A stretch of 64,000 bases of DNA, taken from positions 68,091-132,090 of IMG/VR virus record IMGVR_UViG_2974497520_000001, one strand, 5' to 3'. The DNA comes from a virus. Shown here in pieces: positions 3,592-45,760 of this stretch. The position numbers and the translations under genes were made by a program. Every line of letters begins with the position of its first letter. The first letter of the stretch is position 1. The notes beneath the pieces are model-generated. The model ran no database searches and was not told where the DNA came from. It saw only the letters and a list, made by a program, of their open reading frames with translations.

Positions 3592-3599
<8 letters not shown>

Positions 3600-4353
3600 T
3601 TTTATTTCCTAATAATTTATCAATAGTGGTGTATAGTTCAGAAAGAGTGCCGTTATTTTCAACAACAACGTCACCAGGTAAAATTGGTAGACCCGCTTCA
3701 GTGATGTGCGAGTCTTGTACTTGACCGGTTTCAGCGCGAACTACATGAATAATCGTAGCACCCATCGCTCTGAGCGAATCAATTTCGTGTGTTTGACGAA
3801 CATCAGGTACGACATAGTATTTCGCATCAGAGTATATTTTATCAAAATAGTCTAAAGCGAACAACTTAACCCAATACATCTTATCAAATTGGTTAACAAT
3901 AATATCAGTCCCAAGGGTCTGCATGAGACGACGTACTGACCAATTGTTATTTTTATTTATTACTTCAAACAGTTGGTCTTTTGTTTCTTCAGACAGATAC
4001 TGGACTGGGGTAAGACCATAATGATATGCGGTACGAACATCCATTCCTGGAATAGGAAGGATATTATTCAGTTTGACAATAGCATTTTCAAAGATATCAA
4101 TCACATCATATGGTTTTAAAGGAATGATTTCTTCACGGTCGTAACCGATACCTTCAAAACAGTTAAAATCTAGTTTAGGCATGTAACTACGGTCGAATAC
4201 AGGGTCATCAGAGATGTATTCATAGGCTTCAGCCAGATACTTTTTAATAGGACCTGCGAGCTGAAATTTTACCGAATCCATATTTTCGATTACATAGTTA
4301 GCAACGGTATCCTTACCGCTACGTTTGATTCCTACAATTGATATTAGTTTCAT
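3592..4353 (-). CDS. 1: gp1 deoxynucleoside monophosphate kinase
   Basis: P-loop GIKRSGKDT; RRLMQTLGTD; DVRQTHE. Confidence 0.95.
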
Positions 4354-4943
4354 TATTTTCTCATAGATGGATGCATAGACATACGAGCCACTCGTTGTTC
4401 GGCATACGAATCAATTTGTGGACGACCTGTAACTATTGTACCATCTATTTCTACAGCAAACGATTTGAAGTTGAATGTTGCTGTGGCGATAATCGCCGGG
4501 TCAGAATCCTCTTTATAAGAGTACTGGATTTCCGAGAGGTCGGATGGCCAACCATCGTAGTAATGAATGCTCATTACGATTTTCTGTTTGTTATTATCAA
4601 GGATGTGGAGGGTGATAGCTTCCGGTTGACCTTTAGGATGCCAGGCTTCTGAATCATGGGTTACATAGTTGTTTAATGACAACATCCACTTATAAACGTC
4701 AAGCCACGATTTCAATTCACGGTCCACAAGAAAGTTCACAATCAATGGGTCGAATTCTACAGTAGAACCTGGCAGCTTAGCACGATGTATGCCCTGGGTC
4801 GATCCTGGGACGTCTGAGACCGGAATATGGATACCCGGTAGTGTTACATCTTGTACGTTCAATTTGAATGCCTGTGTCATTCCTGCGTCACTAACCTCTA
4901 AGATAAAGTTAGTAGTGTTAGTTTGGTTAAATAAACCGTTCAT
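4353..4943 (-). CDS. 3: gp3 tail tube terminator
   Basis: NQTNTTNFILEV...LPGSTVEFDPL; synteny. Confidence 0.9.
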   Translation of the reverse strand: MNGLFNQTNTTNFILEVSDAGMTQAFKLNVQDVTLPGIHIPVSDVPGSTQGIHRAKLPGSTVEFDPLIVNFLVDRELKSWLDVYKWMLSLNNYVTHDSEAWHPKGQPEAITLHILDNNKQKIVMSIHYYDGWPSDLSEIQYSYKEDSDPAIIATATFNFKSFAVEIDGTIVTGRPQIDSYAEQRVARMSMHPSMRK

Positions 4944-4954
4944 AGGGTTCCTAT

Positions 4955-4982
4955 ATTGCTTAAGTCCCAGACAGTGTATAAT
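4955..4982 (+). promoter_or_regulatory. MotA-type middle promoter antisense to the HNH gene and gene 2
   Basis: ATTGCTTAA box, 13-nt spacer, TATAAT; opposite to the usual early/middle strand. Confidence 0.65.
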
Positions 4983-5025
4983 GGTCCTAGGTCTGTTCCA
5001 TTCAATAACTGGCTGGGATAATAGA

Positions 5026-5676
5026 TTATTTTATAAATTCACGTAGTCTTACTGGTGTCATAAAAGGCCATTTGGCTATAGTTGGTTTTATCCAGTATCT
5101 TTCGTGGCATGTAGCTTTAAATGCCCGAACCATATCCTTGGCCTCTTCTATAGTATCCACACCAAATTGTTCACAAGTTTCCTTTCTGGCTTTATCCCAT
5201 CTCCGTTTAGAAAGCTCCGCTTGGAGTTCTTTATTGGCAAAACGGCCATTATTCCTATCATGAGTGGTTCCTTTTGTAGGACTCCATCCTCGTCCCTTTA
5301 CAAATCCTTCAGGAATCGGTTCACCCGGAAACAGCTTAATACACTTCTTGCCATTATTATAATAAACCTTTCCTGTTTGGGTTGCTGTGATATTCTCAGA
5401 GTGCTTACGTTTAAGCCAGCCGTAAAGCTTATTAGAACGACGAGGGCCTTGAGTCATTGTCATAGCTGCAAAAGTTAGACCAGGATGTCCTGGATGCATT
5501 TTAACTAATAGTTGATGTGCTAAATAATGTTCTTCAGGAGTTAAATCAACTAAGTTTGTAGATTCATCACCTCCACCCATACATCTAGGTAAAATATGAT
5601 GAGATTCGGTATAACAGGATAGTGCTCGTCCTTGAGCACGTGTAATTAATGAAGAATATATTTTCTGGTAATTCAT
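5026..5676 (-). mobile_element. Free-standing MobE-like HNH homing endonuclease between genes 2 and 3
   Basis: MNYQKIY...ESHHILPRCMGGGDESTNLVDLTPEEHYLAH; start overlaps the gene 2 stop (TAATG). Confidence 0.85.
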
Positions 5677-6503
5677 TATGCCTTCTTCCAAACTTTCTGA
5701 GCTGAATAACGCTTACCTTTCGATACAAATTGCTGAAGTGGTAATCCTATTACATTAGCCCAATCAGATGGTTTTATCTCTACTAAAGGTCCCTTAATAT
5801 TTCCAGGGATATAAGCCTTAATCATCACGTCGGCGCCAGCGAATCCTTTTACCTTACTCCAATCGATTTTTAATTTAGTCGAGTTCGTAATGGTAGGCGT
5901 ACTCGCGTATTGCTTCAGCAATTCTTCCAGAAATTGCTGACGTGCTTTAGGTGGAATATAGTGTAAGTTCAGTCCGTACATTAAATTATGCTTACCTAAC
6001 CCAAGATAAATTATTAAAGGATATTTGTCCCAGTATGGTAGGGTATCCTTATGTTTGGCATCATAGATATAAGCATAAAGCTTACCAGGAGACGGTTTAG
6101 ATACCTGGTGTCCACGAATTCCTTTCTTTAATGTTTCTGTAAACCATTTAGCTGATTTATTGTTTACGGCAGCGCCTTCGTTAGCAATCTTATCGCGAAT
6201 ACTCTTTCTAAAACTATTCACCAAAATTAATTGACGTTCGGCTTTGGTTAATTTATTGCCAGGTTTCTTCTGAAGTTTTTCAACCTGTACAGCAGTTTTA
6301 ATTCGACTCGAGTATCGAGACATCGCAGATGTAAAGCTAGAATACTTGATGCCTTTATCTTCAGCGAATTTCTTAGCCGAAACACCTTTAGCCTTAGCGT
6401 TGGCATATTCAACGCCTAAAGTTATCCATTGTTGTTCTGAACGAGTAGGCTTGGAACCTTTTGTAGTTTCAGTAGCCTCGTTGATGTAAGAAAATATACT
6501 CAT
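5676..6503 (-). CDS. 2: gp2 DNA end protector
   Basis: [35 protein letters not shown]; synteny. Confidence 0.95.
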
Positions 6504-6949
6504 CCTTTCCATCCTAATTTTTTCAGTGAGTTTTCGGTAATCAATCTGAAATTAATTCCCATTTTATCTGCTGTAGCTTTAGCAGCTTTCCATTTATCTT
6601 TATTTACACTCCATGTATAATGTTCGTTGATATATCTCTTTTTAGCAGCTGTAGTCATTTTAGCAGGCGCCGCTGGAGGATGGGTCTCTTTAAAAGGTTT
6701 GACTTCGAAAAAGAATTGTTGACCATTGTCGAACTTCACCCAGAAGTCCATAAAATACCGACGTTTCTTTCCATCAGCGTTACTAAAATATGGAATCACA
6801 ACCTCTTCCGAGTTCCACTGGACGACATTAGGATGGTTGTCAAGCCAACGCATAAGCCATGCTTCCCAAGAGGAACGATATTGGATTTTCTTCCAATCAC
6901 CTTTATATTTTTGTAAGTTTGTAGGTTTAAATTTCCCTGAGTAGGCCAT
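6500..6949 (-). CDS. 4: gp4 head completion nuclease
   Basis: MAYSGKFKP...YRSSWE...RRYFMDFW...EVKP (PD-(D/E)xK type). Confidence 0.95.
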
Positions 6950-6959
6950 AGTGCCTCCT

Positions 6960-6982
6960 TATAAATATTAATATTATTTATA
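6960..6982. promoter_or_regulatory. Divergent pair of late promoters (genes 53 and 4)
   Basis: TATAAATA at 6960-6967 (+) and 6975-6982 (-). Confidence 0.85.
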
Positions 6983-6994
6983 CTCGGAGGCACT

Positions 6995-7597
6995 ATGCTC
7001 TTCTCATTTTTCGATCCTATAAATTACGAATCAAAAACAGTCAAGCCAGATTCCGGCTCATTAACTGATGCCGATGTACTGAGCGTACCGATGACTGATA
7101 TATTTAGAAACTATAAAGAATATTTTGATAAAGTGGCTAAAAATTATACACTTAAAACATATTATATCAGTGGGGCCCCTCGTCCAGAAGAATTAGCCCA
7201 TCAACTTTATGGTAACGTGCAATTATATTGGGTTTTATTGATGTGTAATAACGTATATGACCCTTATTACGGCTGGATTACAGGCCAAGAATCTGCGTAT
7301 CAAGCAGCTATTCAACGTTATGCTACTGCAGGCGGAAACCAAGTCCTTTATCATGTCAATGAAAAGGGTGAGAAATTCTGGAATCTAGTAAATACTCCGG
7401 AAAATCCTTATACTTGGTACGATAAAGGTGATACAGAAAAACGTTATCCTCAATATGAAGGTCCTTTGGCTGCAGTAGATATTTACGAGGACGCCATTCG
7501 TAAAAATGAATATAAGCGCGAAATAAAGATTATAGACCCTAATGACATCGAGTCCTTTGTTTCCGCTTTAATTAGAGAAATGGAGAAAGCCCTCTAA
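6995..7597 (+). CDS. 53: gp53 baseplate wedge subunit
   Basis: MLFSFFDPINY...RPEELAHQLYGN LysM-like segment. Confidence 0.95.
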   Translation: MLFSFFDPINYESKTVKPDSGSLTDADVLSVPMTDIFRNYKEYFDKVAKNYTLKTYYISGAPRPEELAHQLYGNVQLYWVLLMCNNVYDPYYGWITGQESAYQAAIQRYATAGGNQVLYHVNEKGEKFWNLVNTPENPYTWYDKGDTEKRYPQYEGPLAAVDIYEDAIRKNEYKREIKIIDPNDIESFVSALIREMEKAL

Positions 7598-29768: not shown

Positions 29769-29824
29769 GTTTACTTGCTCTAAGCTTTATGGTATAATGC
29801 GCGTATACACAATACGCGCAAGGA
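29769..29824 (+). promoter_or_regulatory. Early promoter plus overlapping 9-bp hairpin in front of the HNH gene
   Basis: GTTTACT, 17-nt spacer, TATAAT (29793-29798); TGCGCGTAT-ACACA-ATACGCGCA abutting AGGA. Confidence 0.75.
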
Positions 29825-29832
29825 TTTCTAAA

Positions 29833-30453
29833 GTGATTATTACTAAATTTGTTGATGTAAAAATAAATACTAACAATTACAGTTATTTCTTAGACTTAGG
29901 GTATGAGTTGGAACCTCTAGGAGCACCGAAGCATGGGCATAAGTGCCAAACTATTCGAGCAAAAGTTTCTGATTTAAAGGATGGTTCTAATAAAGAAGTT
30001 CAATGTATCTGCGATAAATGTGGCACAGAATTCAAACAAAGGATTGCTAGAAATACCGATGTATGTTATCCTTGTAGGCGTCATGAAGCTCTTATAGGTA
30101 ACACCAACGGTAAAGCTAATAAAGGTAAAACTCTACCTCATATGCAAGGTGAAAACCATCCAAGATGGAACCCTAATAAATCTGAATACTTTGCTTATGC
30201 ATCAAAGGTTAGAGCTGTTACTTATGCTTGTAAAGACGAGTGGATGGCTTGGGAAAATGCAGATAAAATAGGGTTATGTGGAGTTGAAGGTGCTTACCAA
30301 TTAGACCATAAGGTTTCAGTAGCTTATGGATTCTATAACCATATCCCAGCAGAGATAATTGGACAATTATCAAATTTAGAAATAATCACTTGGGAATCCA
30401 ATAGAGCTAAAAGTAAGTCTAGTTCAATAGACTTATGGGACTTACTATCCTAA
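29833..30453 (+). mobile_element. Free-standing HNH homing endonuclease between genes 18 and 19
   Basis: CxxC pairs (CDKC, CYPC), NUMOD3-like GENHPRWN, C-terminal LDHKVSVAYG...SNLEIITWESNRAK; GTG start 8 nt after AGGA. Confidence 0.8.
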
Positions 30454-30469
30454 ATAAATTATATCTCCT

Positions 30470-30540
30470 TAATCTATTATCCCAGGCTGTAATATAAAGA
30501 ACCTAAAACCATTATACCATGAGTTTGGTTACAGCGTACA
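30470..30540 (-). promoter_or_regulatory. Antisense promoter/leader element downstream of the HNH gene
   Basis: TGG-TATAAT (-10 at 30511-30516) with degenerate box CGCTGTA 13 nt upstream; 16-mer shared with 5013-5028. Confidence 0.5.
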
Positions 30541-31216: not shown

Positions 31217-31798
31217 ATGTATTGTACTTACTTAACCATATACACGGGGTCTAAACTACCCCGTCGTTATATTGGCTCAACATACGTTGAAAGGATTCTC
31301 AAAGAAGGATATAATGGTTCTGTATTATCCCAAGCATATAAAAAGATTTGGAATCTAGAACGTAAAGAAAATCCGCACCTTTTCAAAACCAGAATTTTAT
31401 CTTTATTTGAAACCGATAAAGAAGCTCGTATAGCTGAGAAAGAGCTTCAAATAAAGTATAATGTAGTTAAATCTAAAAACTATATAAATATGTCATTAGC
31501 TCAGCCTGACGGGTTCTTTGGAATGTCTCGTAAAGGGATTCCAATGAGTGAACATGCCAAACAGCTACAAAGAGATTGTAGGTTAGGTAAAAAGAGGCCT
31601 GAACATTCTAAAGCTCTAAAAGGACGTAAGCGACCAGACCAAGCCAAAGCTATGTCTGGTGAAGGTAATCCGATGTTTGGTAAAGAACATCCGGCTAAAG
31701 GCAAAAAGATTAATCAGCCAAGGATGATTTGCCCTATCTGTGGTGTTGAATCAACTCGTTCGGCTATAACACGTTATCACAAACATGAAAATGAATGA
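31217..31798 (+). mobile_element. Free-standing Seg-type GIY-YIG homing endonuclease between genes 19 and 20
   Basis: YCTY...RRYIGST catalytic motif, conserved E and N, NUMOD3-like GEGNPMFGK, C-terminal CPICG. Confidence 0.85.
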
Positions 31799-41180: not shown

Positions 41181-41266
41181 AAATCACCATAATAAATATA
41201 ATTAAATAGAAGAGCTAGTAGTCTTCTGTCACCAAGCCAAATGGTTTAACGGAAGGACCTAGACCC

Positions 41267-41294
41267 ATTATATCACACCTAAATTTAAAGCATA
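41267..41294 (-). promoter_or_regulatory. MotA middle promoter for rnlB
   Basis: TATGCTTTA, 13-nt spacer, TATAAT. Confidence 0.85.
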
Positions 41295-41504
41295 TTACTT
41301 TGAACTAGAACGCGCTTTGCGCCGAACCTTGTTGTTCAATCTTTTACGATAAACAACCTTTTCTTTCGCTTTAAATTTGGCCTTGGCTTGTTCTACATCA
41401 ACCCATGCTTTGGCCATGTCCTTAGCGGTCCCGCCCATTTTTTTAGCAATTTCTATAAAATTCAACCCAGATTCGTGTAAAAAATGTACTTTAACCTTAT
41501 CCAT
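41295..41504 (-). CDS. 24.3: gp24.3-like small basic protein
   Basis: LHESGLNFIEIA...KVVYRKR; early promoter at 41534-41563 (GTTTACA-17-TAAGAT). Confidence 0.65.
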   Translation of the reverse strand: MDKVKVHFLHESGLNFIEIAKKMGGTAKDMAKAWVDVEQAKAKFKAKEKVVYRKRLNNKVRRKARSSSK

Positions 41505-45167: not shown

Positions 45168-45267
45168 CCTATTTATTACTTGCTAAAGCAGCATTAATGA
45201 ATTCTTGGAGAAGTTTCATCTTATCGGCATCTACTTTAATGGGTTTGGTATTTTTAGTACGTCTCAT
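45168..45267 (-). CDS. Possible 32-aa peptide in the uvsY.-1 position
   Basis: MRRTKNTKPIKVDADKMKLLQEFINAALASNK; ATG overlaps the uvsY stop (TAATG); end approximate. Confidence 0.4.
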
Positions 45268-45701
45268 TATTTACCCGCCTCAAATTGTCTCATCTCATGC
45301 ATGGTCTTAAGGTTAAAACCACGCGCCTTAATAGCATCAAGTGCTGAACTACAAAAGTCTTGTAATAAAGCCCAATACTGAATTGATGTGTCGATTTTAA
45401 TTACACTAGAATCCGCAGCCATAACGGTCTTTAATTCAGATTTCTCATATTGGTCCATACAAACCTCATCACCAGGCTCTCCACGTCCCGTGTAGAAATC
45501 TAATCGCTTCTTAAGTGAGGTCTTTTTCTGGATTTCTAATCTCATTATTTCTTTCTTACAATTCGTATACAGCCTTAGCCATTTGCTGTGCAGCAAAACG
45601 TTGTTCTGTACTTCATATTGTAAACGAGTTCCATCAATCTTTAAATCCTCGTCTAATGCGTCCTGGAATGATTCTAACTTATATTCAATCTCTTTACTCA
45701 T
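45267..45701 (-). CDS. uvsY: UvsY recombination mediator
   Basis: LDEDLKIDGTRLQYE...FYTGRG...YEKSELK...MRQFEAGK. Confidence 0.95.
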   Translation of the reverse strand: MSKEIEYKLESFQDALDEDLKIDGTRLQYEVQNNVLLHSKWLRLYTNCKKEIMRLEIQKKTSLKKRLDFYTGRGEPGDEVCMDQYEKSELKTVMAADSSVIKIDTSIQYWALLQDFCSSALDAIKARGFNLKTMHEMRQFEAGK

Positions 45702-45732
45702 CGCATGTTTCCTGTGTAATAACCATAGGACC

Positions 45733-45760
45733 ATTATACACTATTCATTTGAACAGCAAT
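45733..45760 (-). promoter_or_regulatory. uvsY middle promoter (position of T4 oriF)
   Basis: ATTGCTGTT, 13-nt spacer, TATAAT. Confidence 0.7.

Follow-up and report, generated by a model that had tools for sequence, protein, structure and literature searches.

Middle promoters of phage T4 carry a MotA box with the consensus (a/t)(a/t)TGCTT(t/c)A, centred near -30 (PMC2988021). Two promoters of this type, PuvsY (start 115371; oriF) and P34i (start 153011; oriG), fire the two defined R-loop origins of T4, and both combine a 13-nt spacing between box and -10 with a start 7 nt past the -10. Downstream of PuvsY, which drives uvsY, an unwinding element has been mapped. P34i is an orphan inside a coding region, antisense to a late gene and with no ORF to express, and its origin and R-loop activity have been demonstrated. 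Prereplicative transcription of the strand opposite the late genes also belongs to the older T4 literature; the work of Belin in 1987 (cited in PMC2988021) reportedly dealt with the classical 'anti-late' RNA and with sense and antisense transcription of oriE and gene 32. Promoter and stem-loop cassettes form another described class. PeSLs and PmSLs are short conserved intergenic promoters with a stem-loop at the -10, which are repeated within a genome, are found at indel junctions, carry the Shine-Dalgarno sequence of the next gene and occur mainly in hyperplastic early regions (Arbiol 2010, PMC2839356; Comeau 2014, PMC4122927), and the MotA-box versions (PmSLs) have been described for phage nt-1 (PMC2839356, PMC4122927).

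Here we describe an element between genes 2 and 3 that can be compared with each of these systems. The window, i.e., the whole stretch of DNA that was analysed, comprises 64,000 nt of a Dhakavirus, a JS98/Bp7-like T4 relative, and the region around the element is 97-99% identical to phages E33, LQ5 and C6. The element fills the 82-nt gap from the stop of an HNH gene to the start of gene 3. We consider it, with a probability of about 60%, to be a functional middle promoter for a non-coding antisense RNA, superimposed on a hairpin of the late mRNA. The features of this locus (copy A), of a twin element in the same window (copy B) and of two related promoters are as follows.

4955-4963, + strand: MotA box ATTGCTTAA with core GCTT, from motif reading
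4964-4976, + strand: 13-nt spacer from box to -10, holding the left inverted-repeat arm (4965-4974)
4977-4982, + strand: -10 hexamer TATAAT, followed by the discriminator GGTCCT (4983-4988)
4989-5028, + strand: predicted start A4989 and 40-nt conserved leader of a putative non-coding RNA, from homology with T4 PuvsY and P34i
4964-5019, - strand: hairpin in the late mRNA from gene 2 (here the HNH gene) to gene 3, fold -22.2 kcal/mol, z -2.7
3592-4353, - strand: gene 1
4353-4943, - strand: gene 3, tail completion/terminator, with its start 11 nt from the MotA box
5026-5028, - strand: HNH stop codon; the same TAA ends gene 2 in HNH-less relatives
5026-5691, - strand: free-standing gene for an HNH homing endonuclease (phrog_655), inserted here and lacking in most relatives
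5676-6512, - strand: gene 2, DNA end protector, the first conserved gene antisense to the predicted + strand RNA
6500-6949, - strand: gene 4
30470-30538, - strand: twin element B, antisense to an inserted ORF and gene 18
30538-30530, - strand: box TACGCTGTA of twin B, followed by a 13-nt spacer
30516-30511, - strand: TATAAT of twin B, with predicted start A30504
30485-30470, - strand: end of the twin B leader, which is the shared 16-mer
41256-41299, - strand: middle promoter of rnlB, related to copy A by its leader
45726-45742, - strand: -10 and start region of the uvsY promoter, with the shared 17-mer

The gene 2/3 element has the sequence layout of a middle promoter. The box at 4955-4963 agrees with the MotA consensus, and TATAAT follows after 13 nt, within the 12 ± 1 bp past the box at which a sigma-70 -10 is expected; the box, spacer and hexamer reported on the + strand in the initial annotation are present exactly, at 4955-4982. 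The expected start at A4989 is based on analogy with the mapped starts of T4 PuvsY and P34i, which lie 7 nt after the -10, and the leader reaches its 3' limit at 5028, the complement of the HNH stop codon. MotA and AsiA are encoded by the phage's own genome (PF09114, E 1e-39, and PF09010, E 2e-22, respectively). Across the whole genome, 24 of the 27 strict MotA-box/-10 matches are on the - strand, which makes the + strand orientation of the gene 2/3 promoter unusual and bears out the earlier remark that it lies on the wrong strand relative to the other middle promoters. The promoter faces into the HNH gene, then gene 2 and gene 4, all of which are on the opposite strand; genes 53 and 5 follow on the + strand. 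It had also been said to have no ORF to serve, and the downstream + strand ORFs are indeed not conserved, with 26 codons in HNH-less relatives and 45 in T4. No + strand ORF in the window starts inside the leader, and no conserved + strand ribosome site lies downstream of copy A. A further consensus MotA promoter of this phage, outside the window at G000:C1:11258-11330 (+), consists of TTTGCTTTA, 12 nt and TATAAT; it is located in an early region and is likewise on the 'wrong' strand there.

The promoter motif is widely conserved among T4-like phages. Gene-3-anchored loci were taken from IMG/VR and the spacer was read in each, and the motif GCT[TA]-N13-15-TA[TC]AAT was scored in the distinct gene 2/3 spacers of at least 60 nt (n = 23). 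Of these spacers, 22 have it on the antisense strand and not one has it on the sense strand; the rate expected by chance is 0.05-0.7% per spacer. The spacers span at least ten T4-like lineages, T4 included, among them Dhaka-, Gapriver- (VR), Karam/Kanagawa-, PM2-, PEi20- and T4-type phages and several further groups. Box and -10 are retained in these lineages while the bases between them vary freely, as expected for a promoter under selection. Loss of the motif in close relatives had been named as an argument against a functional promoter; in the gene 2/3 spacers of relatives with and without the HNH gene, the motif is kept. The 74-nt core of the spacer is 91-93% identical to that of Karam-type and PEi20 phages, and the flanking gene 3 and gene 2 DNA is 71-82% identical.

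The same layout is found in T4 on the same strand (75955-76060), with the box AATGCTTTA, 13 nt and TATAAT at 75988-75993. In a 2010 table of 58 mapped T4 middle promoters, P1 (75393) is directly followed by PrnlB (109763), and the gene 2/3 copy has no entry; it may never have been tested, or it may have been tested and found silent. The portions of the review tables available to us enter no defined promoter at the gene 2/3 spacer, and our search for literature on a T4 start-site map or a gene 2/3 antisense RNA found nothing. The cassette is dispensable, as genes 2 and 3 directly adjoin each other, without an intervening spacer, in four phages (L038, L046, L047 and L049); MotA was found in L038 and L046, the two that were checked. 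At least the DNA-binding domain of MotA occurs in all 14 phage records tested, and the records therefore offer no contrast between its presence and absence.

The HNH gene is an insertion next to the spacer in some phages rather than its source. A promoter, regulator or target site of the HNH cassette could be imagined, as the element abuts the 3' end of the gene. Such a role is extremely improbable, and we reject it. HNH-less Dhakaviruses, e.g., LHE83, have a gene 2/3 spacer of the same length and sequence, so the element is not part of the HNH cassette, and it also occurs in T4 and in many genera without an HNH gene. Kosakonia phage 305 retains ~93% identity in the spacer but has a diverged HNH 3' end next to it; conservation is higher in the spacer than in the HNH gene itself. 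The gene sits between the gene 2 stop and the edge of the cassette, with junctions TAATG and TAATC, and positions 5026-5028 are both the outer edge of the cassette and the HNH insertion junction. Two tandem promoter cassettes occupy the gene 2/3 spacer of a distant phage (L045:951-1200), tandem AGAAGATTA repeats lie at the junction of gene 2 stop and cassette in another (L032:1081-1200), and other Dhakaviruses have 3-6 nt duplications there. This junction looks like a hot spot of slippage or recombination.

Exact repeats link the element to two other sites of the window. The 17-mer at 4973-4989 recurs exactly once, at 45726-45742 (-), which recovers the match to the uvsY promoter noted earlier; this copy is 25 nt upstream of a UvsY-family ORF (45267-45701, -), and none of 100 shuffles gave two hits. 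The 16-mer at 5013-5028 also recurs exactly once, at 30470-30485 (-), again as first reported. Neither recurrence is expected by chance. The sequence TATAATGG(T/C)(T/C)CT is also common at early promoters of the same phage, and the 17-mer identity is therefore in part a matter of general promoter consensus.

Comparison of the leaders extends this relationship to the T4 origins. The 60 nt after the -10 were compared by local alignment and scored against 1000 shuffles. The leader of copy A in the window aligns with those of twin B (z 6.7), the T4 gene 2/3 copy (z 6.3) and T4 oriF (z 3.9), and scores lower with the phage's own oriG homolog (z 2.1) and its own uvsY leader (z 0.9). For the leader of the T4 gene 2/3 copy, the scores are z 9.0 with the rnlB leader of this phage, z 6.3 with the T4 oriG leader and z 1.2 with oriF. 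By these alignments, the element belongs to a small promoter-plus-leader family together with PuvsY (oriF), P34i (oriG) and PrnlB, a family that includes both defined T4 R-loop origins. The kinship with the uvsY promoter is supported, as had been suggested, and that with T4 P34i is even clearer.

The gene 2/3 element resembles P34i in several respects. Both are of the MotA type with 13-nt spacing and a start, predicted in our case, 7 nt past the -10; the block AGTGTATAATGGTCC is identical in the window element and T4 P34i, and both are orphans, antisense to a late gene and with no ORF to express. They differ in that oriG is intragenic and of demonstrated activity; the gene 2/3 element, known from sequence, occupies an intergenic spacer, coincides with a late-mRNA hairpin and is absent from some MotA-positive phages. 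A homolog of T4 P34i/oriG is itself kept in gene 34 of this phage, outside the window at G000:C1:153590-153665 (-), with the layout TTTGCTTCT, 13 nt, TATAATGGTTCC and then a GTTCCTGATTCAAC leader. With T4 PuvsY, the element shares the same geometry and, in this phage, the 17-nt identity with the uvsY promoter, and the T4 gene 2/3 copy closely matches T4 PuvsY from the MotA box through the first transcript bases. The two differ in that PuvsY expresses uvsY and has its mapped unwinding element, and the similarity between the PuvsY leader and the element leaders is weak past about +10.

The initial annotation had called the element half of a twin, and a second copy is confirmed at 30504-30538 (-). 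Twin B is flanked by gene 19 and by an inserted 218-aa ORF (phrog_5104). JS98 has no such ORF, and its twin B lies directly 3' of the gene 18 stop; the T4 18/19 spacer has no counterpart. The motif TAATCTATTATCCCAG occurs in the genome of this phage only at A and B. At twin B, AAGGAG is present without a start codon. The outer edge of either copy coincides exactly with the insertion of a foreign ORF (the HNH gene for A, the phrog_5104 ORF for B), and a comparison of the two ORFs found no relatedness.

These observations raise the question of a mobile promoter and stem-loop cassette of the PeSL/PmSL type, i.e., a repeat at which foreign ORFs recombine and which has no dedicated RNA role. The architecture is as published, with a stem-loop overlapping the -10, and copies A and B both join promoter and stem-loop in one repeated intergenic motif. 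The foreign ORF at the outer edge of each copy and the small duplications at the gene 2 junction in relatives would fit as well. However, the PeSLs and PmSLs of the literature are directed at the next gene and terminate in its ribosome site, whereas the present element is backward and geneless: the Shine-Dalgarno sequence and start codon of a served gene are absent downstream on the + strand. It lies between core late genes rather than in a hyperplastic early region, and copy A keeps one fixed position across genera, in at least ten lineages including T4. The two inserted ORFs are unrelated, and one of them is a homing endonuclease with its own mobility. We therefore find mobility of this kind very unlikely as the explanation of the element. 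A different cassette nearby does have the published form. Right after the gene 18 stop, at 29769-29835 (+) of the window, an early-type promoter (GTTTAC, 17 nt, TATAAT) is followed by a perfect hairpin (GCGCGTAT/ATACGCGC) and a Shine-Dalgarno sequence ahead of the 218-aa phrog_5104 ORF; it is a PeSL-like promoter-stem-loop cassette that came in with this ORF. Between genes 19 and 20, the window has a third free-standing homing-endonuclease-like ORF (31217-31798, +; phrog_314/phrog_10820, HNH).

The spacer also carries a hairpin on the late strand. An inverted repeat bracketing the -10 had been noted at first; it is present, at 4965-4974 and 5010-5019 (9 of 10 pairs), and it is better read as a hairpin of the late mRNA. 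The left arm is upstream of the start, so the repeat cannot form in the promoter's own RNA. In the late mRNA, the outer stem pairs 5019-5010 with 4974-4965 and the inner stem pairs AAUGG with CCAUU. The late-strand fold has z -3.2 at twin B and z -1.7 in the T4 copy, and the leader RNA of the + strand has no more structure than usual (z -0.6 and +0.8). The hairpin starts 7-14 nt past the gene 2 stop in every lineage, and its stems are lineage-specific: CCCAG/CTGGG here, CCCGG/CCGGG in Karam-type phages, CCCAGTTT/AAACTGGG in PM2, TCAGTGT/ACACTGA in the VR phages, CTTCCATTC/GAATGGAAG in T4 and CTTCCGGT/ACCGGAAG in another group. All 18 spacers folded have a negative sense-strand z-score, from about -0.5 to -4.35 relative to mononucleotide shuffles. 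In the L040/41/43 lineage, the hairpin is stable on the late strand only, via G.U pairs. Among eight close relatives, one pair covaries (AU in 3, GU in 2, GC in 3), which is not significant as 101 of 500 shuffles scored as high; the hairpin is thus supported across lineages and not within them, and the case for it consists of the differing stems among lineages and the fold z-scores. Two variants each weaken the stem on one strand and give opposite hints on which strand folds. The hairpin lacks a following U-tract and is therefore no intrinsic terminator; neither strand of 4700-5300 has an Rfam match at E <= 1.

The conserved hairpin invites the view that the spacer is a structure of the late mRNA only, with a silent promoter look-alike. 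An intercistronic hairpin of this kind would stabilise or process the gene 2 to gene 3 transcript, or would keep the two cistrons translationally coupled. Its constant place right past the gene 2 stop, the lineage-specific stems and the sense-specific G.U pairs of one lineage are all in keeping with such a role, and the overlapping gene 2 and gene 3 ends of the spacer-less phages suggest that coupling matters. Nevertheless, a hairpin has no use for the MotA box, the 13-nt spacing and the perfect TATAAT with GG discriminator on the opposite strand, a combination whose motif recurs in 22 of 23 spacers. The stem does not include the box, and the loop, which hardly varies, agrees with the leaders of the working promoters PuvsY, P34i and PrnlB. 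A hairpin without a functional promoter is accordingly an improbable account of the spacer, and we favour a middle promoter that overlaps the hairpin.

Whether such a promoter would serve replication is a separate issue. The initial annotation had suggested an R-loop origin, and an origin or primer promoter of the oriF/oriG type is possible, though we judge it unlikely. According to this idea, the annealed transcript, trimmed by RNase H, would prime a rightward leading strand, and the twin at 30.5 kb a leftward one. T4 oriG has an orphan MotA promoter of just this kind, directed against a late gene, and the window element has the AGTGTATAATGGTCC block and the 13-nt spacing in common with it; the leader scores of T4 gene 2/3 against oriG (z 6.3) and of the window element against oriF (z 3.9) point in the same direction. 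A middle-mode promoter, as in the minimal region (~100 bp) of oriF/oriG-type origins, is present at the element, the site is near a strand-switch region, as are oriE, oriF and oriG, and the DNA past twin B melts very readily (0.4th-3rd percentile). Past element A, in contrast, melting is not notably easy: with an AT content of 0.64, the 70 nt next to the -10 are at the 11th percentile of duplex stability, and the corresponding values for an HNH-less relative are 0.60 and the 29th percentile. This measure is non-discriminating and has little power, as T4 oriG itself is only at the 32nd percentile. Also against an origin, some MotA-positive phages have no spacer, and the insertion of an HNH gene at +40 is tolerated. 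To our knowledge, plasmid screens have recovered only oriF and oriG.

The element had been placed near the T4 oriE position, but T4 oriE is 3.3 kb away. The review of T4 origins, which has five, locates oriE in gene 5, ascribes it to an early promoter on the other strand and has no middle promoter near it. We regard it as doubtful that the gene 2/3 cassette and the Dhakavirus twin after gene 18 are the third and fourth members of the oriF/oriG class, i.e., MotA-fired R-loop primer sites, with the gene 2/3 site contributing to the poorly understood origin activity of the oriE region.

We see in the gene 2/3 spacer a composite cassette of T4-like phages that is both old and conserved and that probably acts as a middle promoter with a non-coding product. 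The box at -30 would be bound by MotA, and RNA polymerase with AsiA-remodelled sigma-70 would use TATAAT. The predicted RNA would begin at about 4989, carry the 40-nt conserved leader and then run antisense into whatever precedes gene 3, which is the HNH gene here and genes 2 and 4 in most relatives. When the same DNA is read from the - strand, the late mRNA would form its hairpin a few bases past the stop, with the promoter sequence looped out. The RNA would thus resemble the 'anti-late' RNA of T4 as a middle-period transcript of the strand opposite late genes, in which the leader alone is constant; the T4 'anti-late' observations differ from the element in that they concern bulk hybridisation or other loci. 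Across HNH-plus and HNH-less genomes, the 40-nt leader is the only constant part of the RNA, which argues that any conserved action is local or lies in the act of transcription itself. The likeliest action is probably local, in that the RNA would pair with the late mRNA at the junction of genes 2 and 3 or its transcription would run against that junction.

We also considered whether the promoter counters early read-through from the gene 5/53 side, and this proposal is weakened by a terminator-like hairpin on the - strand (7060-7042). The hairpin, with its T-run, is located inside gene 53 at 7042-7060 (-), before the late promoter of gene 4 (TATAAATA near 6980), and would stop early antisense transcripts from gene 5/53 before they reach genes 4, 2 and 3.

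Searches of public RNA runs for this DNA or that of T4 gave Logan contigs, which hold no strand or end information, or unrelated gut metatranscriptomes, and two raw-read runs contained next to nothing. In one T4-like RNA run, a single low-depth contig crosses the element. In the same run, a contig of depth ~3100 (L021:1256-1285; T4 75363-75392) ends within 1 nt of the P1 start, so contig ends can mark strong start sites. The depth falls 38-fold upstream of the P1 start (T4 75392/75393), 600 bp from the element.

Phage transcription and replication have their reference system in T4, whose middle promoters are regarded as catalogued. In the gene 2/3 spacer there is a sequence of textbook promoter quality that extends from T4 to Dhaka-, Karam-, Kanagawa- and Gaprivervirus-type phages and stands outside the list of 58, and it is a sibling of the two promoters that fire the defined origins of T4. 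If this promoter fires, T4-like phages make a defined and conserved anti-late RNA. Should this RNA form an R-loop, the view of which origins are used near oriE would have to change.
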